Shown: piece after piece, positions 2,134 through 48,670 of the stretch
How the letters are laid out: every line of letters begins with the position of its first letter
Position numbering within the stretch: the first letter of the stretch is position 1
Source of the DNA: Acinetobacter phage Acj61
Strand: one strand, 5' to 3'
Sequence record: GU911519.1
DNA: 64,000 nucleotides
Position numbers and translations under genes: made by a program
The notes under the pieces: model-generated
What the model was told of the DNA's origin: nothing
Databases searched by the model: none
Seen by the model: only the letters and a program-made list of their open reading frames with translations

Positions 2134-2476
2134 GTAGTGATTTTTCGACTCGAGCTAGATAACCTTCAGTGTATCCAGACCAGTTATTTGCTACAACTCC
2201 ACCATTAAGCTTGTGAGCTGATTCAAGGCAAGTTTTAGCTAATTCGTTAGTGTCGTTGTATACTACATCTCGATTAGTATTACCTGCTATACAAGAGCGA
2301 TAATCTTTTTTGATGTCATCGCGATAAGTCCAGTTGTTCTTAACCGCTTGACGAATTCCACCACCAAATGAACATTCTTTAGCTTCTGCGGCTTGTTCGC
2401 GTTCAAGTTGCTCAGCAGATTTGACACAGCCAGTTAAAGCAATTGCAATTAAAGATACACATAGTAAGGTTTTCAT
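2111..2476 (-). CDS. Putative lipoprotein
   Basis: 121 aa; signal peptide with lipobox LTGC. Confidence 0.5.
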   Translation of the reverse strand: MKTLLCVSLIAIALTGCVKSAEQLEREQAAEAKECSFGGGIRQAVKNNWTYRDDIKKDYRSCIAGNTNRDVVYNDTNELAKTCLESAHKLNGGVVANNWSGYTEGYLARVEKSLRDCGEIN

Positions 2477-3459
2477 TTCATTTCACCATTTGGATTATAT
2501 GGAAGTATTATACCATCTTTCATGGCATTTGTAAACTTTGTAATGTAATCATCGTTGTAAAGATTTGTAACTACATCAAAGTTTTCCCAAGCGAATTCAC
2601 GGAACCAGCCTGAAGTAATCGACGTACAGACTTTCTCGAGAGCAATCATGAAACTTTCGTATGGACGAACCATAAACTCATTAGGAATCTGTGAACGTTC
2701 TAATGCAAGGACGTATGATTCTTCGAGGACTCCGAGTAATTGGACTGCCTTGCTTTGAGCAAAGAAACGATCTTTGTCGCAATGAACTTCTTGATTTTCA
2801 GTCATGTAGTATTCGTATGCTGGCTTGTCAAGAAGCTTTACTGCTCGATGAATCGAGTCATGGTCATAAATGTAATTGAAATTTGAATGGAAGAAATCTG
2901 ATTTGCCTACGTTGAGCTTTGGAGTCGCGTAATCGTATGTCTCCTTCATTCGTGCCTGATAGAACTGCTCGTCGATGATCTTTGCACCGATTTTACGCAT
3001 GTTCTTGATGTGTTTCATGGTCTTATGAAAATGAGGACTATTACGAAGATAACGATGACTCATCTTAAGCGTATAAAGCAAATCTAATGACGCATACATG
3101 TAGTTAGCGTAATTGATTGACTCTGGTAGTTTAGGAGCGAGTTGAACTTCATGTTCGAAGCCATGATATAACTGATAAGTCGTAGACTTCTTTGAAGTTG
3201 GAAAGGTGAGTTCCCACATTGATCCGTAATGATTCAAGACGATTGTACCAGTCTTGAATTTCTTAGATGTGGTAATCTTTTCGATTGCAAGAGATGAGTT
3301 GAATTGACGTAAGTAATCAATAAACTCGTATGCAGACTTTTGATTTGGCACGATGATATCGTGATCAAGAGGTTCGAGATTGTGATCGATATGCAGTTTG
3401 TCAAGATGACGAACTAATGCATGAGAACCAATAACGAGAGGTTGAAATGATAATTTCAT
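2473..3459 (-). CDS. Hypothetical protein, possible minimal nucleotidyltransferase fold
   Basis: 328 aa; N-terminal VIGSHAL...DHDII resembles the GS...DxD NTase motif; function not assignable. Confidence 0.5.
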   Translation of the reverse strand: MKLSFQPLVIGSHALVRHLDKLHIDHNLEPLDHDIIVPNQKSAYEFIDYLRQFNSSLAIEKITTSKKFKTGTIVLNHYGSMWELTFPTSKKSTTYQLYHGFEHEVQLAPKLPESINYANYMYASLDLLYTLKMSHRYLRNSPHFHKTMKHIKNMRKIGAKIIDEQFYQARMKETYDYATPKLNVGKSDFFHSNFNYIYDHDSIHRAVKLLDKPAYEYYMTENQEVHCDKDRFFAQSKAVQLLGVLEESYVLALERSQIPNEFMVRPYESFMIALEKVCTSITSGWFREFAWENFDVVTNLYNDDYITKFTNAMKDGIILPYNPNGEMK

Positions 3460-3485
3460 GATGATTTCCTCAATTTGATTAATGA

Positions 3486-3527
3486 TTTGATAGGACCATT
3501 ATACCATGAATCCTATCAAAAGTAAAC
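3486..3527 (-). promoter_or_regulatory. PeSL-like early promoter cassette with inverted repeat
   Basis: On the minus strand, GTTTAC-N18-TATAAT with TTGATAGGA...TCCTATCAA flanking the -10; identical 42-mer at 33174-33215. Confidence 0.55.
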
Positions 3528-3529
3528 AA

Positions 3530-3868
3530 TTAATTGTAGAATTCTTCACATCCGGCGAAAATAATTCTAAGGGCTTCTTTATGAGAGCATTCCCAACCTA
3601 CATTTTCATGACCGTGCTTAACAACGTCATGCCATGCAAATAAAGGAATCTCGTCATTGATTACTTCATAGATGTTTCGCACATACTCATCAAAGTATTC
3701 GCGTTGAATCGCAACATCTTCAAGTAGATCAGCAGAACAATGACTGCCATGCTTTTTCCATAATAGCTTTAGAACCGAGTTTGCGAACTGTGCACGATGA
3801 TCGTTATTATGGAAATGTGATTGCTTCTTACTCATAAGAAGACGACCAGCTTTGAGTCCAATCGACAT
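3530..3868 (-). CDS. Hypothetical protein; true start probably internal Met (MSKKQ, about 3835)
   Basis: 112-aa ORF; the first 11 codons overlap an upstream small ORF, and an ATGAGTAA stop/start overlap is present. Confidence 0.5.
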   Translation of the reverse strand: MSIGLKAGRLLMSKKQSHFHNNDHRAQFANSVLKLLWKKHGSHCSADLLEDVAIQREYFDEYVRNIYEVINDEIPLFAWHDVVKHGHENVGWECSHKEALRIIFAGCEEFYN

Positions 3869-4212: not shown

Positions 4213-4280
4213 TTCAATTTCCTCTTTGTTTGATGATAGGACCATTATAACATGGTCATAATTTAAAGTAAACCGCTTTT

Positions 4281-5126: not shown

Positions 5127-5170
5127 GATTTGATAGGACCATTATACAACAGTCCTATCATAAAGTAAAC
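5127..5170 (-). promoter_or_regulatory. PeSL-like early promoter cassette with inverted repeat
   Basis: GTTTAC ... TTGATAGGACtgttgTATAATGGTCCTATCAAA on the minus strand. Confidence 0.5.
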
Positions 5171-5176
5171 TGCTTT

Positions 5177-6628
5177 TTAAAATTTAATTTGATCTGCTAA
5201 ATCTTCCAATTCGGATCGTGATGCAGCTTGAACTCGATGAACTTTGTTTAGATGCTCTTGAGTTGTTTGCTGAGCATGAGAGATTTCCATTTCATGATCA
5301 CTTGCAGCCGGAATCTTTGGAGCAGTTTCACCGTCAGGTTCAACCCATCGTTGATTGCCTTTCTTGACAACTAATGTGAACTTGTTATTGATCATCTTAT
5401 CACCATAGCGTGATTTGAGCTGTTTGATCAATTGAAGTCCTTGTTGTGCAAGTTCTTCTGTTTCAATGACACCTAACATGAAGTCAGCTGTATGTACAAG
5501 ACCTGCAGATTCAGCAACATCACTCATTGACATGTCTGATGCATCCCATCCACCACGAGTAGTTTGAGCTGCTGACCAAATCAATGTGTTTGTGTCAAAC
5601 GCTAATGCACGAAGTTCTTCGGCAATCGCTTTAACTAATGTGTATGAGTTTTCAGTGTATTGTTTAATACGACATGAACCACAAATACCTAAGTAGTCAA
5701 TGATGATTACGTCAGGCACAAAGCCTTTCTTCAATTTCAACTCGTTGATTAATGCTCGGAATGTGTTAGCATTAGCTCCACCAGTTGCATATTGTTTGAT
5801 GTACAATTGTCCAAGTACGTTAGCTTTTCTCCAACGTTCCATCTTAGACTTGTACTCTGGGTACGAGATTTTGCCATCATCAATATCGTCTAATGTGACA
5901 TCTAACAAGTTAGCATCGATACGTTTAGCACATACCTCTTCTGCCATTTCCATTGTGATGTACAAGACGTTTTTACCAGTCTGCAAATAATCTGCTGCTA
6001 ATGTACAAAGACCTAACGATTTACCAACGTTCGAACCGGCAAGTAAGATGTTTAATGTAGCATTCTCTGCTCCACCTTTAGTGATTCTGTTCAAAATAGG
6101 AAGTTTGAATGGAATCTTGCGTGTTTTGTTTTGATAAGATAACCAACGAGCTTCATAGTCATCCATCCAGTTGTGACCAACTGATGAGTCAAAGCAAACA
6201 CTTAATGCATCGCGCATGATGTCTGGAATTGCACCGACATCTTGAATTTTTCGATTTCTCTGTTCTGGTGGAAGATCAGCATTCGTTTGAATTTGAATAA
6301 TTCGAGATGTTGCGTTGTACATTGCTACCTTTTGAATGTACTTCTCGGTTTCTGGGATTAACCAATCACAGCTTTCTACTTGATCAGAAAGAGAGTTCAA
6401 AAGGTCATTTGCGCCTTTAAGTTCAACTTCGCCTGCACGTGAATTTGATAGTGCAAGATTCAAAGCTACTTTAGATGGCACACCATTATAATCGTTTACA
6501 TGTTTCCGAATTGAGTTATACAAAATTCGTGCCGGTCCTTTCTCGAAGTAGTCTTCATTGAGATATGGCCACACACGTCCAAAATAGTCTTGATTGGCGA
6601 CTAATTGCCCTAAAATCACATCGATCAT
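5177..6628 (-). CDS. 41: Replicative DNA helicase gp41 (DnaB-like)
   Basis: Near-colinear match to T4 gp41 (YFGRVWPYL..., Walker A AGSNVGKS, C-terminal ...LKF); start chosen at MIDVILGQL with a GGTGG RBS. Confidence 0.9.
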   Translation of the reverse strand: MIDVILGQLVANQDYFGRVWPYLNEDYFEKGPARILYNSIRKHVNDYNGVPSKVALNLALSNSRAGEVELKGANDLLNSLSDQVESCDWLIPETEKYIQKVAMYNATSRIIQIQTNADLPPEQRNRKIQDVGAIPDIMRDALSVCFDSSVGHNWMDDYEARWLSYQNKTRKIPFKLPILNRITKGGAENATLNILLAGSNVGKSLGLCTLAADYLQTGKNVLYITMEMAEEVCAKRIDANLLDVTLDDIDDGKISYPEYKSKMERWRKANVLGQLYIKQYATGGANANTFRALINELKLKKGFVPDVIIIDYLGICGSCRIKQYTENSYTLVKAIAEELRALAFDTNTLIWSAAQTTRGGWDASDMSMSDVAESAGLVHTADFMLGVIETEELAQQGLQLIKQLKSRYGDKMINNKFTLVVKKGNQRWVEPDGETAPKIPAASDHEMEISHAQQTTQEHLNKVHRVQAASRSELEDLADQIKF

Positions 6629-9862: not shown

Positions 9863-10779
9863 ACATCTTCTCCATTTTCGATAACTACATCTTCGTATAG
9901 AGGCATTATATACTCGGATTCAATGTCAGCATCGAAATAGATCAATTCTGCAAGACCTGGATGAAAAACTTTTTGAGGATTTTCATTGTAGATAATTTTT
10001 GGTTGTCCAATCAAAACTCGATAATAATCTTGCTTTGACAACTTGATATTGTGAATCACAGCTCGTTCAGGATATTTTGAACGATCGAACGTGTCATTAG
10101 GGTCGGTCACAAAGACTGCACCATTTTTGAGTTCCATAGATTTCTCTACAACTGCATCAAAATCATAACACTTATCCGAGATTCGGAATGGATGAAAAAT
10201 AGTTCTATCACCAATATGAATAACTTCTGCATCACCCAAATATCGGTCAATGATTTCTGGACTCACAACCTTTTGACAAACAACAATTTTTTCTGCCGGG
10301 GCACCATTTTCAACAAGTACATCTTTTTGACATTGATTCAAAACGAATGTACGTTGTGATAAGATCACACTTGCTACATCAGTTTGTAAGAATCCATCAA
10401 TGTATGCTCGTGGATTTTCAGGGTCAGCAGTAATGTTGAAGTTGAAGATGATTGGAATCTTGCCGAAGTAACCAGTGATATCCGTCACAACGATATCGCA
10501 ATCCAAGAATGTGATGATCTTTGCAATCTTATCACGATTACAATTCCAGAACGATCGACGTGTTTCAAATGCATTAGTCATGTAAGGCACTTGGATGTAC
10601 ACGAATTCCGGAAAGAGTTCTTTAAGTTCATCATAGTCTGCAATAGCTGTTGGGATTGTAATTACATCACCAGCTCGAGCACGACTTAAATGAAGTTGGA
10701 AATTGCCGTCCTTAAGGACTGAGTATAACCCAGTCTCATAAGAACGCATAGAGAAGATTGGTACAATCAGCTTACGCAT
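9850..10779 (-). CDS. Hypothetical protein in the hmC-modification cluster (possible sugar transferase)
   Basis: 309 aa; occupies the position where T4 carries beta-gt; no recognisable motif. Confidence 0.4.
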   Translation of the reverse strand: MRKLIVPIFSMRSYETGLYSVLKDGNFQLHLSRARAGDVITIPTAIADYDELKELFPEFVYIQVPYMTNAFETRRSFWNCNRDKIAKIITFLDCDIVVTDITGYFGKIPIIFNFNITADPENPRAYIDGFLQTDVASVILSQRTFVLNQCQKDVLVENGAPAEKIVVCQKVVSPEIIDRYLGDAEVIHIGDRTIFHPFRISDKCYDFDAVVEKSMELKNGAVFVTDPNDTFDRSKYPERAVIHNIKLSKQDYYRVLIGQPKIIYNENPQKVFHPGLAELIYFDADIESEYIMPLYEDVVIENGEDVWLS

Positions 10780-14875: not shown

Positions 14876-14920
14876 ATTTGATAGGACCATTATAACACAG
14901 TCCTATCAAATCGTATACTG
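14876..14920 (-). promoter_or_regulatory. Early promoter cassette with inverted repeat
   Basis: TTGATAGGA-N-TATAAT-GGTCCTATCAAA on the minus strand; weaker -35. Confidence 0.4.
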
Positions 14921-14929
14921 CTTTATGAA

Positions 14930-16102
14930 TTAAAAACCGAAAATATCTTCAAGAGAAGCTTTCTTTTCACATTGAAGCCCAGCGGCTTCACACATACCTT
15001 CAAGTGGAGTCTTGAAAGATTTACCGAATAATGAGACATAATCGACTGAACGTAGAACGTTTTGACGAATCTCAGTTGGAATCTCTGTACCAGAAGGCCA
15101 TGCAATCAATTTGTCACCAAATGGGTTGGCAGGTACTAATGGCAGAACCATGACCTTTTCGCCTTCTTGGATGTCTGTTGCACCAGGGATTTCTTTGATT
15201 GCTCGTTTGTAAGTCAGAACTCCACGAATATGAGCAGGACACTTGAGACCAGGGAATCCATTGTCATCATATTTAGCAATGTTGTTTGCAGACGAAACTT
15301 TAGCGATCACTTTGTAATCAAGAGCTCGATATTCATTTTCAAACTCTTTGTAGTAAGTTTGAAGTGATTTCTCACCTTCTTGAAGCATTCGGCGAATAGA
15401 TTCAACTAATGCATCTTGAACTGCCTTAGGAGTAGATGATTGCTGAGTTTCCATTCCCATGATTTTCAAGTATGGTGTCTTGAATCGAGTACCTTCCATG
15501 TCCCATACACAAAGTGCATATCGTTTCTTAGCTTTCCAGAATCCACCGATACCTTCAGAACCAAGTGGTGGTGCAGAGATTGCTTCACGATCCATAAACA
15601 TCAAATGTTCGCGATTGTTCATGTACTCACACATTTCACGATATGCTGTATCAATCATTGGTTCCATTTTCTTGAGACCAAATTGATTCAAGAATTCGAT
15701 CAAATCATTTGTCTCTTTGAAACGTTCGATGCCAACTTTTTCAATTACTTTGTCAACACAGACATAGATCGAATCTGTATCACCAGCAATAACGAATGCA
15801 TGTCCTGTAGTTCCACAGACTTTATTCAAGTACTCGTTAACTTTTCGTTCAATCCATTGAATTGCCATTTGTCCAAACGTAGTAATTGCTGCAGCATTTC
15901 GAAGATCATAGAATCGGAAATAAATATTACCTAAAGCACCATACAACGAGTTAATGAGTAGCTTTCGGTTGATCTGATTCGTGTCACACAACATGATGAA
16001 ATCGGCACAATCTTGTTCAAGTTTTTCGATTTCTTCGTCAGACAGTGTTTGAAGATAAGCGATTTCTTCGTCAGTGAAATCACGTCCAAAGTCAAGGTTC
16101 AT
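14930..16102 (-). CDS. 43: DNA polymerase gp43, C-terminal fragment (43B): polymerase motifs B and C
   Basis: KLLINSLYGALG (motif B) and VIAGDTDSIYV (motif C) of family-B polymerases; 390 aa; own ATG start. Confidence 0.85.
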   Translation of the reverse strand: MNLDFGRDFTDEEIAYLQTLSDEEIEKLEQDCADFIMLCDTNQINRKLLINSLYGALGNIYFRFYDLRNAAAITTFGQMAIQWIERKVNEYLNKVCGTTGHAFVIAGDTDSIYVCVDKVIEKVGIERFKETNDLIEFLNQFGLKKMEPMIDTAYREMCEYMNNREHLMFMDREAISAPPLGSEGIGGFWKAKKRYALCVWDMEGTRFKTPYLKIMGMETQQSSTPKAVQDALVESIRRMLQEGEKSLQTYYKEFENEYRALDYKVIAKVSSANNIAKYDDNGFPGLKCPAHIRGVLTYKRAIKEIPGATDIQEGEKVMVLPLVPANPFGDKLIAWPSGTEIPTEIRQNVLRSVDYVSLFGKSFKTPLEGMCEAAGLQCEKKASLEDIFGF

Positions 16103-16484: not shown

Positions 16485-17019
16485 CTTTATTTTGAAGTTT
16501 GAAACGACGATTCAAGTCAACGTTAATGTTGAGATATCCTGACACGTTTCGTGAAATTTTGTCTGCAACACCTGCATCGTTTGCAAGTGAAACAAGTTCA
16601 GTCAAACGAATTTCAGCTTCATTGATCTCGCCTGTGTAGTCTGATGAGCTATAACGCTGAGAATAATTTGCATACGTGTAATCATGTACTGCAGATTGAA
16701 TTCGACGTTGTAATTGATCGATCATAGATGTGCCTCGTTGATAGTAGACTGGCTCTGGTTTCTTCCAATCATATGGGAATAATTTGTGGCACTTTGTGCA
16801 ACGTTTTTGAGGAGGATTCGATAGTAACATACGTCCTTCCTGAAATTCATGTTCGCATTCTGGAATACGAGGCTCGATACCTGAAACACATCCAGTTGTT
16901 AAGCTCAGAGGTGCTTGCACTGGCGGTGTAGCAACAAGTATTGAATGTTTCAATTCAGGTGCAGGTTGTCCATATACACCATTGAACCATTGTTCAGCTA
17001 AAGATTTCATACGAACCAC
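16462..17019 (-). CDS. Hypothetical protein with Cys/His cluster
   Basis: 185 aa; CEHEF...CTKCHK. Confidence 0.5.
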   Translation of the reverse strand: MVRMKSLAEQWFNGVYGQPAPELKHSILVATPPVQAPLSLTTGCVSGIEPRIPECEHEFQEGRMLLSNPPQKRCTKCHKLFPYDWKKPEPVYYQRGTSMIDQLQRRIQSAVHDYTYANYSQRYSSSDYTGEINEAEIRLTELVSLANDAGVADKISRNVSGYLNINVDLNRRFKLQNKVEGEKYE

Positions 17020-17483
17020 TCCGGTTGATTACGATTTTTCCATTCAGCAAGATTTCGTTTTTCAGTCATGTACAACTCGCGATACAATTGAACTGTGTCT
17101 GCGTTGTGTACTACACGTCCAGGCAAAACTGCAACGAATGGAGTCAATTCACCTTTTCCATCAGGAATTTTATCAAGAACATCGATAAACAAAGGAATCA
17201 AACGAGAACCTGCATGTACCTTACCATATCGATGAGTGTACTCATCAAGAAGAGCCATGTTAAGTTCGAGTAGATATTCAAAGTTTGCTTTAGATTCACG
17301 AACCCAAACTGCTGAAGGATGATTGACATGAGTTTTACGATACATATCTTCCGTAGCTAAGCCGAAAACATGGCATGCAGTCGAAAGAAGTTGATTGTAC
17401 TCAGTAATCATTTTAACAACGTGTTTGTTGCCATGTGCTTGAGCACATAGATTTATGTCGTGATCTAAAAGAAAGATGTTCAT
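17007..17483 (-). CDS. Hypothetical protein
   Basis: 158-aa ORF in the gp43 split island. Confidence 0.5.
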   Translation of the reverse strand: MNIFLLDHDINLCAQAHGNKHVVKMITEYNQLLSTACHVFGLATEDMYRKTHVNHPSAVWVRESKANFEYLLELNMALLDEYTHRYGKVHAGSRLIPLFIDVLDKIPDGKGELTPFVAVLPGRVVHNADTVQLYRELYMTEKRNLAEWKNRNQPEWFV

Positions 17484-17500
17484 GATAATTCCATCATTGT

Positions 17501-17542
17501 TTTGATAGGACCATTATAACATAGTCCTATCAAAAAGTAAAC
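17501..17542 (-). promoter_or_regulatory. PeSL-like early promoter cassette inside the gp43 split island
   Basis: GTTTAC-N18-TATAAT with flanking TTGATAGGA/TCCTATCAA. Confidence 0.5.
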
Positions 17543-19658: not shown

Positions 19659-19766
19659 AATTTAATACTCATTAGATGATAAGACTATAATAACAAATCA
19701 TATAGCAAAAGTAAACTATTAGATGCCACAAAAGGAGCATAAAGCTCCTATGTGATTACATTTTGA

Positions 19767-20089: not shown

Positions 20090-21598
20090 TTACTTGCGCA
20101 ACTTCTTGAGGATTTCTAAGTTTCGTTTACCAGGCAACATCTTGTTTTTCCATTCTTTACGTTGGAAGAACACTTTGGTGATTTCTTCAGGAATCACACC
20201 TTGGACATCTTTGGTGTACATCATGCCGTTTGGTGAACAACTGTACACTTCTGAAGGACGTGGAGCAGTTTTGTTGATGTACTCAGCCAATGGACTTAAT
20301 GCGAATGTACCTGCAATAGTTTCTGGGCTGATATTCACTTGACGAATGATCGATGGATACAATGATGTCAAGTCAAATGACATAACATATTTGTAAGCAC
20401 CTGGTTTTGGTTCCTTAACGTATGCACCTGGATAACCTTGACGAATATGAGATTTGCCTTCTGGTAAGATCGTGTGCTTTGATTTCAATGAGTTGAATAA
20501 AATCGCATCCCAAGTTTTGATTGGAGACATGACTGATCCGATTGCCATTTTAGCATAGTAACCCATTGAAAGTGATAGGTTAATGAATCCACGTTTCACA
20601 TCAATCGCTTGTACAGATTCAACGTCCATGATGTTGTACGAAATGTAACGTTGGTGATTTCGTTCACGTAACTTGTTAATTGGACCATCATATTCCAACT
20701 TACCAACACCGGTTTCATATTTCGCAATGAAGTCAAGTTTATAAGTCGGTTGGTTTGTGAATGCGAACTTTTTGTATAAGTCCATGTAGTCAAGAATCGT
20801 GACACCTACGATATTGAAGATTTCTTTGTCACCATACATGTTAGTGATGACTTTAGAAGTTACTTTACCGAATGGACTCATTCGATTGACTGCACTGTTA
20901 CCAAGAACTCGTTTCAAACGATTGAGCACGTATGGAATATCGAATCCTTCAACGTTCCAACCTGTGAAAATTACTGGTCGTTTAGTTTCCCAAAGATTGA
21001 CGTATTCCATCAATAATTCTTTTTCAGAATCAAATGGCATGTACACGACTTTGTCTAAAAGATTTTGAGGTACTTCATCACCACCTTCAGAATCTGGGCG
21101 AGCTGCAAGTTTGATGTCCCATTTCGAAACAGAACCATAAACCGAATTCAACAAGTCAAAGACATAGTACTTGTCATCGATTGAATCATAGTGAGTGATC
21201 GCATCGATTTCATACATCGCTTCAGCTGGATTCGGGAACTCTGCTGCAGTCACCTCAATGTCCATATTGGCAACACGAACATATTTTCGATTGTACTCAA
21301 TCACATCTTTGTATGTGTCAGCAATATATGCTAATTTGAAGTCATCCATACCAAGAACATCGACGATACCACGAGTTTTCTGCATCCAATCTTTGGCATC
21401 TTTGATGCATGTGAATCGTTTAGGGAGACATGGCTTACCATAAATGTCTTTGTACTTTGATTCAACGTGATCTTGTGCATGAATGAATAATGTCGGTTCA
21501 TATGGCACATAACGAATAACTTCTTCACCAAATTCATTGATGTATCGTTCACAAATGTTGTTACCAATCTGTTCGACTGCTAAATAAAAAGGCTTCAT
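20090..21598 (-). CDS. 43: DNA polymerase gp43, N-terminal fragment (43A): 3'-5' exonuclease domain plus motif A
   Basis: VANMDIEVT (Exo I D-x-E) and SFDLTSLYPSII (motif A); 502 aa ending at a stop codon. Sum with 43B is 892 aa against T4 gp43 898 aa. Confidence 0.85.
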   Translation of the reverse strand: MKPFYLAVEQIGNNICERYINEFGEEVIRYVPYEPTLFIHAQDHVESKYKDIYGKPCLPKRFTCIKDAKDWMQKTRGIVDVLGMDDFKLAYIADTYKDVIEYNRKYVRVANMDIEVTAAEFPNPAEAMYEIDAITHYDSIDDKYYVFDLLNSVYGSVSKWDIKLAARPDSEGGDEVPQNLLDKVVYMPFDSEKELLMEYVNLWETKRPVIFTGWNVEGFDIPYVLNRLKRVLGNSAVNRMSPFGKVTSKVITNMYGDKEIFNIVGVTILDYMDLYKKFAFTNQPTYKLDFIAKYETGVGKLEYDGPINKLRERNHQRYISYNIMDVESVQAIDVKRGFINLSLSMGYYAKMAIGSVMSPIKTWDAILFNSLKSKHTILPEGKSHIRQGYPGAYVKEPKPGAYKYVMSFDLTSLYPSIIRQVNISPETIAGTFALSPLAEYINKTAPRPSEVYSCSPNGMMYTKDVQGVIPEEITKVFFQRKEWKNKMLPGKRNLEILKKLRK

Positions 21599-22826: not shown

Positions 22827-22887
22827 GATAATGTCCTCATTTAGTTGATAAGGCTATTATATCAAATAGCCTTGGATTTGTAAACAC

Positions 22888-29902: not shown

Positions 29903-29945
29903 TACCACAAAAGACAGTTTGAAGTAAACTGCCTTTTTCAATTAA
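29903..29945 (-). promoter_or_regulatory. Terminator-promoter cassette: hairpin with GTTTAC in the loop, followed by TATAAT
   Basis: Minus strand AAAAAGGCAGTTTACTTCAAACTGTCTTTTGTGGTATAATG; a near-identical copy (G-A changed to G-C in the stem) at 36568-36612. Confidence 0.45.
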
Positions 29946-32086: not shown

Positions 32087-32893
32087 TTATGATTTAGCAT
32101 CAAGGAGTGAACCACCCATTAATGCGAAAATTCGTTTGTTGAGTTCAGGCAACGGATGTACTCGATTTGTATCGACCGACTTAGGATTCACATTTAGCTG
32201 TACACATGCTTCTTGGAATGATTCAAATCGATTGCCGTAATCTTCACGTAAGAAGTTTTCACGTTCTGTGTACTCATGCCAAGTCCCTGTGCAACGACCG
32301 GTATCACCTTTGTGAGCTGTTGAACGATCGTACTTGTAATAGTGTTTAAATGGATACGCTTCGAAATCTGGCCCTAATGTGAAAACTGCTTCATAACCTT
32401 TTGTGAATGTACGTCCAAGTACTTGACGATACTCTCCACCTTGAGTAAGGTACATCTCACCGATTTGATATGTGAAAGGTGAAACGTATAACTCTTTCGT
32501 TAAATTGCCATTAGCGAATTGAATGATAATTTCTTCGATAAGTTTGTATGAACGCATCGTTAGTGCACCTTCACCGAATACTACATGATGTCCAGTGTTG
32601 TAATTCTTAGCGAATTCTTGTGCAAGCTGAATGATGTCAGTATCATATGCACCTGTGTTGATCATACGCTGTAATTCGCTATAGATGTCTTCGATACATT
32701 CATACGTGTAAAGAGGTTCTATGTCATGAGTTTCAAGAAGCTCTTGAGGGTTGTAGATTGGCTCGCCATAGTAATCATTTACTAAGCGTGCTTCATCTTC
32801 AGATACCATGATGATATGCTTGGCAATTCGGATTCTACGTGAACCATCAAATTTAGGACGTAAAACATATTCGCGGTTGATTAAAAGTTCCAT
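32087..32893 (-). CDS. Hypothetical protein
   Basis: 268-aa ORF. Confidence 0.5.
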   Translation of the reverse strand: MELLINREYVLRPKFDGSRRIRIAKHIIMVSEDEARLVNDYYGEPIYNPQELLETHDIEPLYTYECIEDIYSELQRMINTGAYDTDIIQLAQEFAKNYNTGHHVVFGEGALTMRSYKLIEEIIIQFANGNLTKELYVSPFTYQIGEMYLTQGGEYRQVLGRTFTKGYEAVFTLGPDFEAYPFKHYYKYDRSTAHKGDTGRCTGTWHEYTERENFLREDYGNRFESFQEACVQLNVNPKSVDTNRVHPLPELNKRIFALMGGSLLDAKS

Positions 32894-32920
32894 GTGAATT
32901 TCCTCATTTCAAGTTAAGTT

Positions 32921-33147
32921 TAAGCATCTTTACGAGCAGTACCAGATTTACCAAAACGATCAACGTATGCATCAGTGATTACGTTAGCCCATTTAATTGC
33001 GGTTGATGTTGATTTGCAATCTTGGCACTAGCTACAGCGCAAGCAACTCGAGTCTAGACTTCACGTTCAGCCAACTCAAATTCAATGCTGACGTTGTGAT
33101 TAGTGGTTTTAGGTGAAACGTTATCAAAAATATTATCAGCGTTCATG
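32921..33147 (-). pseudogene. Disrupted small gene: a 30-codon N-terminal ORF and a separate C-terminal reading frame, separated by a segment carrying TAG in all three frames
   Basis: ATG at 33147 gives MNADNIFDNVSPKTTNHNVSIEFELAEREV then stop. The downstream frame ...CQDCKSTSTAIKWANVITDAYVDRFGKSGTARKDA ends at 32921. Minus-strand 30-mer CTAGACTCGAGTTGCTTGCGCTGTAGCTAG (plus coordinates 33028-33057) carries TAG in three frames, with adjacent palindromes ACTCGAGT (XhoI) and AGTCTAGACT (XbaI). Confidence 0.4.
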
Positions 33148-33173
33148 TCATTTCCTTTTAAATGGATGTTTGA

Positions 33174-33215
33174 TTTGATAGGACCATTATACCATGAATC
33201 CTATCAAAAGTAAAC
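33174..33215 (-). promoter_or_regulatory. PeSL-like early promoter cassette (exact copy of 3486-3527)
   Basis: 42-nt identity with the 3486-3527 copy. Confidence 0.55.
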
Positions 33216-33454
33216 TACTTTTTGCAATAATGATCAATTAATTCATTACAAAGTTCGTGGCTAATATCGATCTTGTAACACTCATAGATCGTTGAGGGCA
33301 GATAACTGTTATGTTCAGTGTAACCATGAGATACGATGAATCTCTTAATGTTATCCTTTAACTTTTTAGGTGCTCTACGAAAATATTCATCTATAGAGCA
33401 CTTGTACGTACGTTTCTCCCAGCGATTTCGGCATTGACGTTCTGAAAGGTTCAT
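33215..33454 (-). CDS. Small Cys-rich hypothetical protein
   Basis: 79 aa. Confidence 0.45.
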   Translation of the reverse strand: MNLSERQCRNRWEKRTYKCSIDEYFRRAPKKLKDNIKRFIVSHGYTEHNSYLPSTIYECYKIDISHELCNELIDHYCKK

Positions 33455-34443
33455 AGCATCATGATCTCCAATGCTTTGTTAAGAGTTTTGATGTCTGACT
33501 CAGTCCAAACGACTTGCTTGTCTAGTTCAGCCTGACGCTTTTTGATAGTTTCGAGTTCGGCATTCATAGCCTTAAGAGCATCATGACGAGATTCAAGTTT
33601 ATCTTTTATCGCATCAACAGCTACGTTAGCACCATGATTGAGCTCTAATGGACTCTTCATAAATTCACCTTTCTTTAAAACTACGACAAGGCAAGATGTG
33701 TCAACTTCAACACTTCGGACTATGTGCATCATTCGGAACATCTTGGCTAATGAATTGAGAATGCTTTTATACAATTCAGCTTCTTTAGGGCCAAGGCCTA
33801 CTGGTTGACCGGGCTTTTTCGTCAATTTGATACGAAGTACATCGCCGTGAGTACTTGCAGAATAATGTTCTGAATAGACAACAAAGCCCATGTATTCACA
33901 ACCGATATTTCCGCCACCTACATTGATTTTTTGTAGCTTTTGATTTGATCGATTATCTCGTTTAGCAAAACGTCCTTCGATGCCTAATAAATGAGGCCAT
34001 TGGCTACGTAATAATTTTAGTACTGCGTTTGAGCGATGCTGACTTGCATACACGAAATCAGTTGTAGCGCCTTTGATCAAAATCTGGTCGATGCCTTCTT
34101 TGTTTTTAAAGTGAGACATTGATCCGAACTGTTTGAGACGTTGACCAATCAGATATTGCTGCGCAACACGGGACTTCATAATTCGACGAGAAATTCGTTT
34201 GATATCGAATTCTTTAACTAGTGCAACGTCACCTCGAATCAAACTTTCTAAGTCAGCTTCATATTGATCAGAGAATCGATTTGAGATTCCAAATACAATA
34301 GAACGAATTAATGATTCACGATCAGGTATCACAGACAAATCATTTCGTGCAACGATATTTGCTACGCCTTGACGTTGACATTCACCTTCGAATGCTGTTT
34401 CGATAGTTCCAAGAACTAATTGTAAAAATTGAGTTTTATTCAT
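33451..34443 (-). CDS. Hypothetical protein with C-terminal coiled coil
   Basis: 330 aa; C-terminus ...LKAMNAELETIKKRQAELDKQ. Confidence 0.5.
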   Translation of the reverse strand: MNKTQFLQLVLGTIETAFEGECQRQGVANIVARNDLSVIPDRESLIRSIVFGISNRFSDQYEADLESLIRGDVALVKEFDIKRISRRIMKSRVAQQYLIGQRLKQFGSMSHFKNKEGIDQILIKGATTDFVYASQHRSNAVLKLLRSQWPHLLGIEGRFAKRDNRSNQKLQKINVGGGNIGCEYMGFVVYSEHYSASTHGDVLRIKLTKKPGQPVGLGPKEAELYKSILNSLAKMFRMMHIVRSVEVDTSCLVVVLKKGEFMKSPLELNHGANVAVDAIKDKLESRHDALKAMNAELETIKKRQAELDKQVVWTESDIKTLNKALEIMML

Positions 34444-34556
34444 CTCATGACTCCTCAGTCTATCTGTCCAGTAAATAATAAATTAGTAGTTGTATTGACC
34501 TGAAGGTATTGTATCATACATCCTCCAGGTAGCAATTAGTGGTTTAGATCAAATGA

Positions 34557-35471
34557 TCATTTTTTGTTCAAGCGAGCTTCCGAAACTACAAGAGCTTTAG
34601 CGAGAATATTGATGTCATTATTAAGCTCAAAGATTTCTCTTTCGAGAGCATCTTGTTTAGCCTTTAATGCTTTACGTTCTTCAGTCTTAGCCAATGACTC
34701 TTCACGAAGTTTATCAATAAGGTCTTGCAAAGGCAATTTAGGTGCTATAGGCCTGTTCATTTCACTATCAAGAATTTTATAATTGAATGAAATCCACGTT
34801 TCTCCGTGACCTTTTATTTGCATTGATTTAAATTTCAATTTTGTCATCTTGAGATAGGTTTTGATATCGTCAACTAATTCATTCGCTGGTACAGTTCGAT
34901 TGTGGCCTCGAATATTAACACCAATCTCTTTTGTGTTAGGCTGCAACACAAAGCTGAACTGTACACCTGAATTGCTAATATACTCATTTGGCTTGTACTG
35001 TTCTACACCATGATATGACTTATTACGACCTTTCAAACGGAGATATGCTTTAAAGCCTTGAGTAAATTCTCGTTTGAAAATTTCAAAGAATTGTGGGCTG
35101 ATGTAACCTTGCTCAAGGCGATACATTCCACGAAGTCCTTGGATGTAATAACGATCGCCATAACGATACATGTCAAACTGAGCATTGAGTGCTTTAGTAC
35201 TTGCGAGAACATTAGCAAACTTGTACTTTTTGATTTCTTGCATGATAGCAGGAACATCATAGTTGTACGGAGTCAAGTTAGGCACATATAATTTCTTGAC
35301 AACGTTATCTGCTAAGTGATGATTGAAGTCAAGAAGATTTGTACCATCAATAGCACGTTCAAGAATAAAGCGGATTTCTTGTTTGATGCCTTTGGTATCT
35401 CGACCAGCAAGATTGCCAATAAGACCTTCAAGTTCAGTTTTTACAAATTCGTTAATATCTTTTATAGTCAT
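34557..35471 (-). CDS. Hypothetical protein with C-terminal coiled coil
   Basis: 304 aa; C-terminus ...KTEERKALKAKQDALEREIFELNN. Confidence 0.5.
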   Translation of the reverse strand: MTIKDINEFVKTELEGLIGNLAGRDTKGIKQEIRFILERAIDGTNLLDFNHHLADNVVKKLYVPNLTPYNYDVPAIMQEIKKYKFANVLASTKALNAQFDMYRYGDRYYIQGLRGMYRLEQGYISPQFFEIFKREFTQGFKAYLRLKGRNKSYHGVEQYKPNEYISNSGVQFSFVLQPNTKEIGVNIRGHNRTVPANELVDDIKTYLKMTKLKFKSMQIKGHGETWISFNYKILDSEMNRPIAPKLPLQDLIDKLREESLAKTEERKALKAKQDALEREIFELNNDINILAKALVVSEARLNKK

Positions 35472-35545
35472 GATAATTTATCCATGTTAAGATGATAGTT
35501 CAATTATACACCAAAAAGGGAACCGTGTAAACAGTTCCCTTAAAA

Positions 35546-36567: not shown

Positions 36568-36612
36568 ATTATACCACAAAAGGCAGTTTGAAGTAAACTG
36601 CCTTTTTAAATT
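36568..36612 (-). promoter_or_regulatory. Terminator-promoter cassette (copy of 29903-29945)
   Basis: Same about 40-nt sequence. Confidence 0.45.
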
Positions 36613-39778: not shown

Positions 39779-39822
39779 TATACTACAAACGGAGAACTAA
39801 GTAAATAGTTCTCCGGAATTAA

Positions 39823-41179: not shown

Positions 41180-41237
41180 AATGATCTCCAGTTAATATAA
41201 GAGCAATTATACTACAATTTGTGTTGTGTGTAAACTA

Positions 41238-41269
41238 AAAATGGGAATTATTTTGAAAATAATTCCCAT
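41238..41269. terminator. Perfect 14-bp-stem hairpin
   Basis: AATGGGAATTATTTT-GAAA-ATAATTCCCATT between two gene ends/starts. Confidence 0.5.
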
Positions 41270-41275
41270 TGGTTA

Positions 41276-44688: not shown

Positions 44689-45123
44689 CTAGTGTCCTTG
44701 AGTTTGTGCACGAGACTTGCCTTTGCACATTTTTGAGTACCAATCTTCATAGAAAACTGGGTCTTTCAATTTTTCTTGAAACACTTTTGATGCACGTTCA
44801 GCTCGTTCTTGGCGATCTTCTTTGGTCATAGTAGCATTGATGTAATCAAAACCACCTGTGCCTCCGAGCTTGAGATTGTATGTGTCATCTCGATCAATGA
44901 ACTCTTGATCTACAAGTTGAGATTCATGCTCAAACATTTCTTCTTGAGATGAATGAAATTTGAGGATTTCTTTTTCAAATTTGTCAGCTCCATATTTAGC
45001 CATAGCACGTTTGAGAATTGTGCCTGAACCCATGTAGCCATCATTGAGACGTTTGGTTTTGTGGGCTCCTATGTAAATGTGTTTAGTGACTGAATTTGTG
45101 ATTTTGTATGTGTAAAAATACAT
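44689..45123 (-). CDS. GIY-YIG homing endonuclease (Seg-like)
   Basis: [18 protein letters not shown]...DGYMGSG GIY-YIG motif; 144 aa. Confidence 0.7.
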   Translation of the reverse strand: MYFYTYKITNSVTKHIYIGAHKTKRLNDGYMGSGTILKRAMAKYGADKFEKEILKFHSSQEEMFEHESQLVDQEFIDRDDTYNLKLGGTGGFDYINATMTKEDRQERAERASKVFQEKLKDPVFYEDWYSKMCKGKSRAQTQGH

Positions 45124-45241
45124 GACTCTTTACCGTTTGTTCAACGTTGGAGAATCTCATAGAGAATACCATCAAGTGGCATATGTATTTATACAAAACC
45201 AGCCAATTTGAGCATTGTTAAGAGGCTTGGCTGGTCAATTT

Positions 45242-45580
45242 TTATTTGATGAACTTTTTGGTCACGTTGCCTGTTCGGCTTCGGTAAAGTCCTTTGAGTT
45301 TATCGTTGATGTCCCAATCACATTGAGTGAATAGAATAGGGTCACCTTTTTCTTGTTCATGAAATTTGATTCCGTAACAGTAACGCAGACGATCTGGTCC
45401 GATGAGTGAAATCAAATTGTTGATGTCCATATTGGCACGAACAATGCCGTTTAGATCATATTGGCGTTGTTGATATTCTTTTATGAGACGAGAAAATGAA
45501 CAGTTTCGATTGAGATGGATGCAGCCTAAAATGACTAAAGCTGCTACGAATGTGATCAAATAGAATACAGGTAGTGTCAT
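45242..45580 (-). CDS. Membrane-anchored hypothetical protein
   Basis: 112 aa with an N-terminal TM helix. Confidence 0.45.
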   Translation of the reverse strand: MTLPVFYLITFVAALVILGCIHLNRNCSFSRLIKEYQQRQYDLNGIVRANMDINNLISLIGPDRLRYCYGIKFHEQEKGDPILFTQCDWDINDKLKGLYRSRTGNVTKKFIK

Positions 45581-47119: not shown

Positions 47120-47196
47120 TGGCAGAATCGCCTTCGATTCGAACGAAGATTAACGGGGTTGGAGCCCGTCGTGGTACCATTACACTAGCGACCTAT
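47120..47196 (-). tRNA. tRNA-like, anticodon CCA (Trp); acceptor stem imperfect, possibly a pseudo-tRNA
   Basis: Anticodon arm ACGGG-CTCCAAC-CCCGT, T arm CTTCG-TTCGAAT-CGAAG and D-loop AATGGTA are present. The 3' acceptor strand GCGATTC pairs poorly with 5' AGGTCGC. Confidence 0.35.
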
Positions 47197-47200
47197 AATT

Positions 47201-47276
47201 TGGTGCACGAGACATGATTCGAACATGTGACCTGCTGCTCTTCAGGCAGCCACTCTACCAACTGAGTTACTCGTGC
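47201..47276 (-). tRNA. tRNA-Phe (GAA)
   Basis: GCACGAGTAACTCAGTTGGTAGAGTGGCTGCCTGAAGAGCAGCAGGTCACATGTTCGAATCATGTCTCGTGCACCA; canonical cloverleaf; CCA encoded. Confidence 0.8.
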
Positions 47277-47282
47277 GTTATT

Positions 47283-47356
47283 TGGTAGCGATATCCAGAC
47301 TCGAACTGGAACCTTTGGGTTATGAGCCCTATGTGCAACCTTTACACCATATCGCG
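47283..47356 (-). tRNA. tRNA-Met/Ile2 (CAT)
   Basis: Anticodon loop CTCATAA; T arm TCCAG-TTCGAGT-CTGGA; CCA encoded; 1-72 pair mismatched. Confidence 0.6.
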
Positions 47357-47362
47357 ATAATT

Positions 47363-47436
47363 TGGAAGTCGCAAAAGGGATCGAACCTTTACTAACAGAG
47401 TCAAATTCTGTGGTGCTACCATTACACCATGCGACA
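47363..47436 (-). tRNA. tRNA-Gln (TTG)
   Basis: Anticodon stem-loop ACAGA-ATTTGAC-TCTGT; T arm AAAGG-TTCGATC-CCTTT; U1-U72. Confidence 0.65.
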
Positions 47437-47527
47437 ATTGATAGTTTTTGATCTGCTGAACTATAACAGCAGCTCGACAGTAAGTTCATCGAGTCTCAAG
47501 AAGTGTATTTCTACACTTAGACAAATT

Positions 47528-47603
47528 GGTCTCCCTAGTTGGATTTGAACCAACGACATCTTCTTTCCAAAAGAAGTAGGCTACCAGACTGCCCTATAGA
47601 GAG
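47528..47603 (-). tRNA. tRNA-Pro (TGG)
   Basis: CTTCT-TTTGGAA-AGAAG anticodon arm; GTTGG-TTCAAAT-CCAAC T arm; CCA encoded. Confidence 0.8.
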
Positions 47604-47659
47604 ATAACAAAAATAATGGATTAGTGAGCATTGTAAAGAGGCAAATCCATATCTGAAAT

Positions 47660-47735
47660 TGGTCGTCGAGACATGATTCGAACATGTGACCTGCGGATTA
47701 TCGGTCCGTTGCTCTACCAACTGAGCTACTCGACG
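47660..47735 (-). tRNA. tRNA-Ile (GAT), with unusual C33
   Basis: Perfect acceptor stem CGTCGAG/CTCGACG; anticodon loop CCGATAA; T loop TTCGAAT. Confidence 0.65.
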
Positions 47736-47830
47736 GGAGGTGAAACTGGGATTTGAACCCAGGGCCCCATATCACTATGAGACGGTAGTTTTCAAGACTA
47801 CTGCAATAAGCCAGACTCTGCCACTTCACC
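47736..47830 (-). tRNA. tRNA-Ser (TGA), type II, CCA not fully encoded
   Basis: GGTGAAG acceptor; anticodon arm GTAGT-CTTGAAA-ACTAC; long variable arm; T arm CTGGG-TTCAAAT-CCCAG. The 3' end is ...TCC, shared with the first nucleotide of the next tRNA. Confidence 0.65.
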
Positions 47831-48034
47831 AAAATTCTGTGATAGTTTTGTTTATGTAACGACCAAGCTCTATCAACTTCGCCAATCATTCAAAAGAATG
47901 ACAACATTTTTCAATTCTCACTTGAGGTGGAGGAACACCTTGTTAGGACAGCTCCAAAACGTTCTAAAGTTTCGTAAGGTATCCCGAGCTAAATCAGTCA
48001 TTGCGCTTATGGCTATGATTCAACTACTAACATT
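47831..48034 (-). ncRNA. About 200-nt non-tRNA spacer inside the tRNA array; candidate small stable RNA
   Basis: No tRNA fold found and no credible ORF; T4 carries two small stable RNAs (species 1 and 2) in its tRNA region. Confidence 0.25.
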
Positions 48035-48110
48035 TGGCTCCCCAGACACGGATCGAACGTGTGACCCACAGATTAACAGTCTGCTGCTCTACCAACTGAG
48101 CTACTGAGGA
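48035..48110 (-). tRNA. tRNA-Asn (GTT)
   Basis: TCCTCAGTAGCTCAGTTGGTAGAGC...CTGTTAA...TTCGATC...CTGGGGAGCCA. Confidence 0.8.
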
Positions 48111-48143
48111 AGAAATTGTTTAATTTATTATAATTATTTATAT

Positions 48144-48218
48144 TGGTTGGACCACACAGATTCGAACTGAGACTAACGACATCACAAATCGCGGTGCTAA
48201 CCATTACACCATGGTCCA
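48144..48218 (-). tRNA. tRNA-His (GTG)
   Basis: Acceptor TGGACCA/TGGTCCA; anticodon loop TTGTGAT; T loop TTCGAAT; A73-CCA. Confidence 0.7.
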
Positions 48219-48226
48219 CATCAAAT

Positions 48227-48302
48227 TGGTACTCTTATCGGGACTTGAACCCGAGTTTTCAACGTGAAAGGCTGACGTCCTAACCGACTAGACGATAAGA
48301 GC
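48227..48302 (-). tRNA. tRNA-Glu (TTC)
   Basis: Anticodon arm TCAGC-CTTTCAC-GTTGA; T arm TCGGG-TTCAAGT-CCCGA; CCA encoded. Confidence 0.75.
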
Positions 48303-48308
48303 AATGTT

Positions 48309-48394
48309 TGGTGGGGCCGGTGAGACTTGAACTCACAGATGCTTTTGGCGTCGGATTTACAGTCCGATGGGGTTACCAATTTTCCTACGTCCCC
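48309..48394 (-). tRNA. tRNA-Tyr (GTA), type II
   Basis: 86 nt; anticodon arm TCGGA-CTGTAAA-TCCGA; long variable arm; T arm GTGAG-TTCAAGT-CTCAC; CCA encoded. Confidence 0.7.
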
Positions 48395-48410
48395 GTAGTA
48401 ATTCTTAAAG

Positions 48411-48481
48411 TTCTGGCACGAGTAATCGAAACTCGGTGACTGGAGTACAAAACCAGCATAATACCACTATATGATGCCAGA
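48411..48481 (-). tRNA. tRNA-Thr (TGT), no encoded CCA; flanked by a 12-13-bp extended inverted repeat
   Basis: Acceptor TCTGGCA/TGCCAGA; D arm CATA-TAGTGGTAT-TATG; anticodon loop TTTGTAC; T arm CGAGT-TTCGATT-ACTCG. The 3' trailer is CTT instead of CCA. Confidence 0.55.
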
Positions 48482-48594
48482 ACTTTAAGAACTATGTTGT
48501 TTAGTTGATATAGACAGTATATCATACTTTTCCTAACAGCATATTGATTTGCTGTTGGGGCGTGTGTTTCTATAATTATATTTATACAACAATC

Positions 48595-48670
48595 TGGAGG
48601 CGTCAACAGGACTCGAACCTGCATCGACGCGGATTTGCAATCCGCCGTATAACCATTCTACCACAACGCC
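48595..48670 (-). tRNA. tRNA-Cys (GCA)
   Basis: Anticodon arm GCGGA-TTGCAAA-TCCGC; T arm GCAGG-TTCGAGT-CCTGT; CCA encoded. Confidence 0.7.

Follow-up and report, generated by a model that had tools for sequence, protein, structure and literature searches.

Promoter-early-stem-loop (PeSL) cassettes have been described in RB49/phi1, PST/T4 and nt-1/KVP40 (Arbiol et al. 2010, PMC2839356; Comeau et al. 2014, PMC4122927). Their stem-loops sit "between the -35 and -10 or overlapping the -10" (PMC2839356), and one of those in RB49 displayed strong terminator activity in a lacZ assay (Arbiol et al., PMC2839356). For PST/T4, the stem consensus is AGNA-loop-TCNT (PMC4122927). PeSL-like sequences had been noted earlier at the plastic gene-43 locus, including g43A-g43B of split-polymerase phages (Arbiol et al., PMC2839356). 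A promoter inside a hairpin is also known from T4 e, soc, 49 and I-TevI, where transcripts from upstream include the whole hairpin while those from the internal promoter are without its 5' arm (PMC3014915).

Here we analysed a 64-kb stretch of phage DNA (the window), in which several early promoters carry an inverted repeat across the -10 box. By the sequence-level definition these elements are PeSLs, of the subclass overlapping the -10. The PST/T4 consensus AGNA-loop-TCNT fits the ...AGGA...TCCT... of the window, and PeSLs and window elements alike exist as near-identical copies able to recombine. PeSLs are enriched near variable genes, including the split gene-43 locus, and the window elements may be so too. 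In contrast to the RB49 PeSL, which has a TTGACA-type promoter and a GGGG/CCCC-rich stem, the window elements have a promoter of the T4 GTTTAC type, an A/T-rich stem and no U-tract; as the RB49 stem is GC-rich, its terminator activity may not transfer to the window hairpins. The elements of the T-even internal-protein (IP) locus (Repoila et al. 1994, as described in PMC2839356) appear to be the closest, having a T4-type early promoter and a weaker, A/T-rich stem-loop. That likeness is drawn from the sequences of coliphages JK45 and SF, which have the same arms, and from Arbiol's description; relative to the IP-locus elements as so described, those of the window differ in belonging to a Twarogvirinae-like phage and in not being at IP genes. 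With T4 e/soc/49/I-TevI the window elements share a promoter within an inverted repeat, but the window promoter is early and its ribosome-binding site is free, the Shine-Dalgarno sequence being 4 to ~60 nt past the right arm. No earlier description of the dyad element in this phage group was found in the literature searched. What is known is thus the PeSL, or T-even early-promoter stem-loop, and what is added here are modest extensions and not a new system.

Results

The window and its relatives

The window, with a G+C content of 39%, comes from a T4-like myovirus and takes in its early region and the beginning of its baseplate module, in the gene order gp41, gp40, glucosyltransferases, split gp43B/gp43A, gp62/44/45, gp46/47, gp55, tRNA block and gp2/4/53/5/6/7/8. 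The encoded proteins share 50-85% identity with their counterparts in Acinetobacter phage Kimel (Twarogvirinae) and 45-70% with those in T4; the phage is T4-like and closest to the Acinetobacter Twarogvirinae. A search of a phage collection returned no record above ~75% nucleotide identity to the window. The early genes lie on the minus strand up to ~54.3 kb and are all co-oriented.

The DNA polymerase is split into gp43B (14930-16102, minus strand) and gp43A (20090-21598, minus strand), which are separated by ~4 kb of small ORFs, the majority without a homologue in Kimel, T4 or Acj9. This block contains sites 3 and 4 below and one terminator-type promoter. The window also encodes a cluster of 13 tRNA genes (47124-48670, minus strand) and, at 45198-45234 (minus strand), a match to the Rfam abiF RNA motif (RF03085; 58 bits against a gathering score of 37) flanked by ORF 45242-45580, with no Pfam match, and by ORF 44689-45123, a GIY-YIG Seg-like homing endonuclease. 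As ACCAGCCAA...TTGGCTGGTTTTGT resembles a plain terminator hairpin, the abiF match may be structural mimicry.

Early promoters with an inverted repeat across the -10

The five minus-strand promoter sites reported in the initial annotation are all present in the sequence. They are given here with two dyad promoters with different arms that the annotation had missed, at 22861 and, weakly, at 4249.

Site 1, 3486..3527 (minus strand): -35 GTTTAC at 3522-3527, -10 TATAAT at 3498-3503; hairpin at 3486-3520 with arms TTTGATAGGA / TCCTATCAAA; stop of ORF 3530-3868 3 nt before the -35, ORF 2473-3459 (DUF7275/phrog_2141) downstream.
Site 2, 5131..5170 (minus strand): -35 at 5165-5170, -10 at 5141-5146; hairpin at 5131-5160 with arms TGATAGGACTGTT / AATGGTCCTATCA and two G.U pairs; directly downstream of the gene 41 helicase (5177-6628), with a DprA-like gene downstream.
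Site 3, 14876..14918 (minus strand): -35 GTATAC at 14913-14918, -10 at 14889-14894; hairpin at 14876-14911; follows gp43B (14930-16102) directly and precedes an Imm-like superinfection-immunity ORF.
Site 4, 17500..17542 (minus strand): -35 at 17537-17542, -10 at 17513-17518; hairpin at 17500-17535 of 15 bp with one G.U, -20.1 kcal/mol; in the gp43B-gp43A variable block, upstream of ORF 17007-17483 (phrog_624 'DNA binding protein').
Site 5, 33174..33215 (minus strand): -35 at 33210-33215, -10 at 33186-33191; hairpin at 33174-33208; within the ORF block 32087-35471.
Additional promoter with different arms, 22850..22885 (minus strand): -35 at 22880-22885, -10 at 22856-22861; hairpin at 22850-22873 with arms AAGGCTATT / AATAGCCTT; between the gp44 and gp62 homologues.
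Weak member, 4240..4273 (minus strand): -35 at 4268-4273, -10 at 4244-4249; 6-bp repeat GACCAT / ATGGTC at 4240-4257.

With at most one mismatch, GTTTAC-N18-TATAAT has 16 minus-strand matches in the window against 0.54 expected, and with at most three mismatches the dyad TTGATAGGA-N14/15-TCCTATCAA is found at the five reported sites only, against 0.02-0.05 expected. All sites have A-rich sequence upstream of the GTTTAC-N18-TATAAT promoter, and at the five the inverted repeat around the -10 is 9-15 bp. The promoter pattern that the annotation had ascribed to all five holds except at site 3, where the -35 is GTATAC; likewise the dyad exists at all five, but the left half of site 2 is ATGATAGGA and not the shared 9-bp half-site. 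The identity between sites 1 and 5 spans 45 nt, GTTTAC through TCAAATCA, slightly more than the 42 nt first noted. The supposed degenerate versions at 19680, 36554, 39255, 42478 and 49982 proved to be other early promoters and not degenerate dyads. These promoters have the right-hand segment TATAAT-rGTCyTATCA in common with the dyads and nothing more, and one such supposed version, at 36573, has a terminator hairpin across its -35 instead.

Aligning the ~19 minus-strand early promoters of the window at their -10 boxes clarified the anatomy of the dyad. As TATAAT-rGTCyTATCA(A) is carried by about two-thirds of them, the right arm is part of the general early-promoter consensus. What is peculiar to the five sites is the left arm alone, TTGATAGGA(C), which lies in the spacer between the -35 and -10 and makes the dyad. 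The placement is intergenic, after the upstream stop codon and before the downstream Shine-Dalgarno sequence and start codon; at site 1, for example, Shine-Dalgarno and ATG follow within 30-75 nt.

A divergent plus-strand promoter within the palindrome was not evident, promoter-like matches being at background (56 versus 57 expected), and Rfam detected no known RNA family at the sites. Mimicry of host promoters was rejected: in 185,579 bacterial and archaeal genomes, with one genome per bacterial species, the right-arm consensus TATAATGGTCCTATCAA gave 13 unrelated matches and none in Acinetobacter, so that it is not a motif of the host.

Hairpin stability and excess over chance

The stems of the five sites are 13-15 bp with G.U pairs, and their sense-strand folding energies are -15 to -20 kcal/mol (z of -3.6 to -6.5) against -12 to -14.5 kcal/mol for the antisense strand. 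Over 33 promoters from 7 phages, the mean is -15.9 kcal/mol for sense versus -12.8 kcal/mol for antisense, an average difference of 3.1 kcal/mol (Wilcoxon p = 8.6e-6). Counting promoters whose repeat across the -10 scores 7 or more, and taking the expectation from spacer shuffles, we observed 6 versus 0.11 expected in the window, 9 versus 0.35 in Kimel and 4 versus 0.13 in T4. The own arms of each promoter also pair better than arms exchanged between promoters. Based on stability, excess and the co-variation described below, a stable stem-loop adjoins or overlaps the promoter at these sites.

The same architecture in other phages

The same dyad is present in Acinetobacter phages Kimel, AbTZA1, KARL-1 and many others. 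In the Acinetobacter phages the copies are often a perfect 14+5+14 palindrome, TTGATAGGACTATT-GTTAT-AATAGTCCTATCAA, and several of those in Kimel and AbTZA1 are near-identical. In coliphages JK45 (Tequatrovirus) and SF (Mosigvirus), the internal-protein loci have GTTTAC...TGATAGGACTATGTTATA(G/A)TAGTCCTATCAA, with the same arms as the window. A scan of all early-type promoters of Kimel and T4 and of part of Acj9 revealed that the repeat across the -10 is family-wide, with many arm sequences. The arm pairs include TGATAGGGCTAT/ATAGCCCTATCA, ATGAGACTATT/AATAGTCTCAT, TGATACAGTG/CACTGTATCA and ATAGAGCT/AGCTCTAT in Kimel, and CCTAGAATTGTGA/TCACAATTCTAGG in T4. The T4 promoters with the repeat precede motB (7191), dmd (20588), mobD.2 (57966), ipII (65775), 30.7 (129895) and cd.2 (133307).

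When IMG/VR was searched with the bare dyad, most matches were unrelated chance palindromes. In two unrelated IMG/VR viral contigs (37-53 and 2647-2663), TATAATGGTCCTATCAA follows a TTGAAT-type -35 beside the complement of a tRNA gene.

For T4 (NC_000866), RefSeq notes at 133300-133313 an 'inverted complement of previously reported sequence; corrects the early promoter Pe133295'. Those 14 nt lie within the dyad-bracketed hairpin region (arms and loop) at the Pe133295 -10, and the discrepancy could be either an old sequencing artefact at the hairpin or a true inversion flanked by the arms.

The leader after site 1 (ATCAAATCATTAATCAAATTGAGGAAATCATCATG, 3459-3495) is near-identical to Kimel NC_049492 ~10478-10515, the leader of an unrelated gene (promoter 10521, before cef). 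Whole promoter-leader-Shine-Dalgarno cassettes are thus common to different genes in different phages.

Arm co-variation and strand polarity

The arm sequences are frequently unlike between sites yet complementary. In two sets of ungapped dyad-promoter alignments, double-sided changes were found in 12 of 16 and 7 of 16 pairs, counts matched by 0 of 500 and 4 of 500 shuffles, respectively, while slid registers were 30-52% paired. As these two sets had been chosen for pairing, a third was collected from the promoter directly downstream of gene 41, a position conserved in T4, Kimel, Acj9, AbTZA1, the window (site 2) and many T4-like genomes of IMG/VR. This set, comprising all 18 distinct sequences downstream of gene 41 with an 18-nt spacer, was not chosen for pairing. 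It had 80% of cells paired versus 68.5 +/- 1.7 when shuffled (0 of 500) and 30-56% in slid registers, and double-sided changes in 10 of 12 pairs; since the sequences of the co-variation sets include paralogous and related copies, the counts are not of independent events. Downstream of gene 41, G.U intermediates could also be placed in series, TGATAGGGC/GCCCTATCA to TGGTAGGGC/GCCCTATCA to TGGTAGGGC/GCCCTACCA.

On the sense strand of 28 distinct promoters, the stem mismatches are 27 G.U and no A.C (binomial p = 1.5e-8; p = 3e-6 against a compositional expectation of 62%). That polarity points to selection on the read-through RNA or on the non-template DNA strand. A double-stranded protein site or a symmetrical cruciform is disfavoured, as neither would give sense-strand polarity. 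The data suggest a helix in the sense RNA; a hairpin in the non-template DNA fits too, less parsimoniously. On this evidence, the pattern argues that the 'SL' of the cassettes would act within read-through RNA rather than as a site in DNA or for a protein.

U-tracts and terminators

No U-tract follows the hairpin at the dyads, where the right arm runs into A-rich sequence (AAATCA, AAAACA), and a terminator scan of the window did not flag the dyad sites. Having no U-tract, the dyads were ruled out as intrinsic terminators of the kind with a GC-rich hairpin and U-tract.

A second class of minus-strand promoter in the window has a GC-rich terminator hairpin overlapping or preceding the -35 and a T-run in the spacer.

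Terminator-type promoters and their hairpins (minus strand): 29906-29934, 35510-35541, 36575-36603, 39784-39815, 41234-41270 and 19727-19749.

An example of such an embedded hairpin is AAAAGGCAGTTTACTTCAAACTGCCTTTTGTGGTATAAT. Over ~45 nt the cassette at 29904 is nearly the same as that at 36573 (AAAAAGGCAGTTTACTTCAAACTG[T/C]CTTTTGTGGTATAATGA), and the two make up another repeated cassette family. Like the dyads, these terminator-type PeSLs would have a promoter-embedded hairpin acting on upstream transcripts; they are unlike the dyads in that the hairpin is GC-rich, lies over the -35 and is then followed by a T-run (CTTTTGTGG) in the spacer, whereas the dyads straddle the -10.

An intrinsic terminator upstream of or overlapping the promoter was found for 1 of 21 promoters with the repeat versus 29 of 92 other early promoters (Fisher p = 0.012). 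RB69-like orthologues with a separate GC hairpin and T-run after gene 41 have only a weak repeat. From the near-exclusivity and the weak repeat of the RB69-like phages, the hairpin probably fills the niche of terminators; the exclusivity is in part physical, as a T-run in the spacer leaves the left arm no space.

Gene neighbourhood of the cassettes

Four of the five sites adjoin genes absent from or relocated in Kimel, T4 or Acj9, in a small sample of sites. Site 2 follows gene 41 as in other phages, and the DprA-like gene downstream of it is elsewhere in Kimel and Acj9. The Imm-like ORF downstream of site 3 is absent from Kimel, T4 and Acj9, the Kimel homologue of the gene downstream of site 4 is located elsewhere, and the ORF block around site 5 (32087-35471) is without homologues in Kimel or T4. 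Site 1 is syntenic, and the orthologous promoters Kimel 32910 and Acj9 39169 are dyads with different arms. Two metagenome scans with the dyad returned no closer relatives that would give exact indel junctions.

Among the neighbours of the cassettes, site 3 has an Imm-like superinfection-immunity protein (PF14373; 14582-14842, minus strand) downstream, and site 5 has an Arn-like anti-restriction protein (phrog_4452; 33215-33454, minus strand) upstream. Both are typical accessory 'host-takeover' cargo.

Sites 5 and 2 are identical over 30 nt (GTATAAT...AAACATCCA). As its left 45 nt equal site 1 and its right 30 nt equal site 2, site 5 is a chimera, and the crossover this implies lies within the shared TATAATGGTCCTATCAAATCA core. 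The copies are similar enough to recombine and exchange (45 nt for sites 1 and 5, 30 nt for sites 2 and 5). As far as these comparisons go, the evidence for movement of genes at the cassettes is circumstantial but consistent. The description of the sites as PeSL-like early promoter cassettes in the initial annotation was borne out by the architecture, which matches the PeSL subclass with a -10-overlapping stem-loop and the T-even IP-locus elements; the four sites at absent or relocated genes and the chimeric site 5 fit it too.

Discussion

The reading we favour, at a probability of roughly 0.62, is that the sites are strong T4-type early promoters whose hairpin is an RNA-level element on upstream transcripts. 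Each site would be a strong sigma70-type T4 early promoter, with A/T-rich sequence upstream, GTTTAC, an 18-nt spacer and TATAAT, strength being judged here from sequence evidence only. The left arm of the repeat, in the spacer at about -28 to -14, pairs with a segment that begins where the -10 ends and runs to about +5. By the sigma70/T4 rule, the RNA of the promoter itself is predicted to begin within the right arm, with the A that lies 7 nt past TATAAT, and so would form no hairpin. Read-through from the upstream gene on the same strand, as expected from T4 biology, would carry both arms and could fold a hairpin of 9-15 bp a few nucleotides past the upstream stop codon. As the left arm is upstream of the predicted start, the hairpin would be confined to the read-through transcripts, and for the same reason the 'structured 5' leader' that had been put forward for these sites is not supported.

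The hairpin most likely defines or protects the 3' ends of upstream transcripts; it could block exonucleases, be a site of processing or attenuate transcription in part. It would serve the 3' end of the preceding message without terminating efficiently, a niche taken elsewhere in the genome by the intrinsic terminators that overlap the -35 of their promoters. As a by-product, the near-identical cassettes of 30-45 nt would be substrates for homologous recombination, by which genes could move with their promoter as in the PeSL model. Sequestration of the ribosome-binding site, as for gene e, was considered and rejected, the right arm ending at about +5 to +8 and the Shine-Dalgarno sequence lying 4 to ~60 nt beyond.

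It is possible but unlikely that the structure is one of DNA, a non-template hairpin or a supercoiling cruciform that tunes promoter melting or strength or makes a recombination hotspot, perhaps one that endonuclease VII cuts and from which PeSL mini-circles arise. A G.T is the least destabilising mismatch in single-stranded DNA, so a non-template hairpin would give an equal strand bias, and the repeat has an A/T-rich centre (GTTATAAT). Arbiol et al. placed a crossover in the PeSL loop and speculated on a structure-specific factor (PMC2839356). The chimeric site 5 could be accounted for in this way, as could the 14 nt between the Pe133295 arms of T4 that were once reported inverted. However, a cruciform requires pairing in both strands, and the antisense strand would hold A.C mismatches and folds ~3 kcal/mol worse. 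In many copies, moreover, the last three bases of the -10 (AAT) are in the stem, so that extrusion would hide -7T, misplace the -35 relative to the -10 and bring no pre-melting. Nor is a condition known that exposes the non-template strand alone upstream of +1.

Something of a long shot is that promoter-embedded hairpins without a U-tract are a distinct cis-element across the Straboviridae (Tevenvirinae and Twarogvirinae), one that couples 3'-end formation or stabilisation of the upstream message to the next initiation and is possibly read by a dedicated factor of phage or host. Distant phages have the canonical arms TGATAGGACT/AGTCCTATCA in excess, more than pairing by itself would call for, and this counts against the favoured reading. 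Such an element, if true, would explain why E. coli and Acinetobacter phages have the arms TGATAGGACTAT/ATAGTCCTATCA in common.

That the repeat has no function of its own, being a by-product of template switching (a quasi-palindrome) or of repeated copying of the cassette, with the rest due to chance, is quite improbable. Recent copying or gene conversion would account for the 45-nt identity of sites 1 and 5 and the chimeric nature of the latter, and several copies in Kimel and AbTZA1 are likewise near-identical. Downstream of gene 41, however, the architecture is kept with different arms in phages whose core proteins are only ~60-70% identical, and the repeat is in excess over chance in each of three genomes. 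The G.U bias and the near-exclusivity with terminators would be unexpected for a neutral by-product.

Very improbable is the operator for a dimeric regulator suggested in the initial annotation, by which a dimeric phage or host protein bound to the dyad would switch a subset of the promoters off or on: although the dyad covers the -10, a classic position for a repressor, its canonical arms are the same at all five sites of the window and are found again in Kimel, AbTZA1 and the coliphages JK45 and SF, and a phrog_624 'DNA binding protein' gene is downstream of site 4, the arms of promoters in Kimel and T4 differ yet stay complementary, with compensatory changes and G.U intermediates among positional orthologues, a ratio of 27 G.U to 0 A.C is meaningless for a double-stranded site, the arm spacing varies over three or four registers, contiguous arms of 9-15 bp are unlike half-sites of 4-6 bp, and the downstream genes are of mixed function. 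Neither half-sites conserved regardless of complementarity nor deviations free of strand polarity were found.

On the favoured reading of a hairpin in upstream transcripts, a dyad that looks like an operator becomes an ordinary, already described feature of T4-type phages, and annotation of a false regulon is avoided. The additions to what was known are modest. A dyad at the -10 is common to Tevenvirinae and Twarogvirinae, with identical arms, and includes the conserved position after gene 41. It appears to evolve as a paired RNA would, in that changes in the arms compensate each other and G.U intermediates occur but A.C does not. The near-exclusivity with terminators, along with the absence of a U-tract, may bear on how T4-like phages insulate or stabilise adjacent early transcripts.
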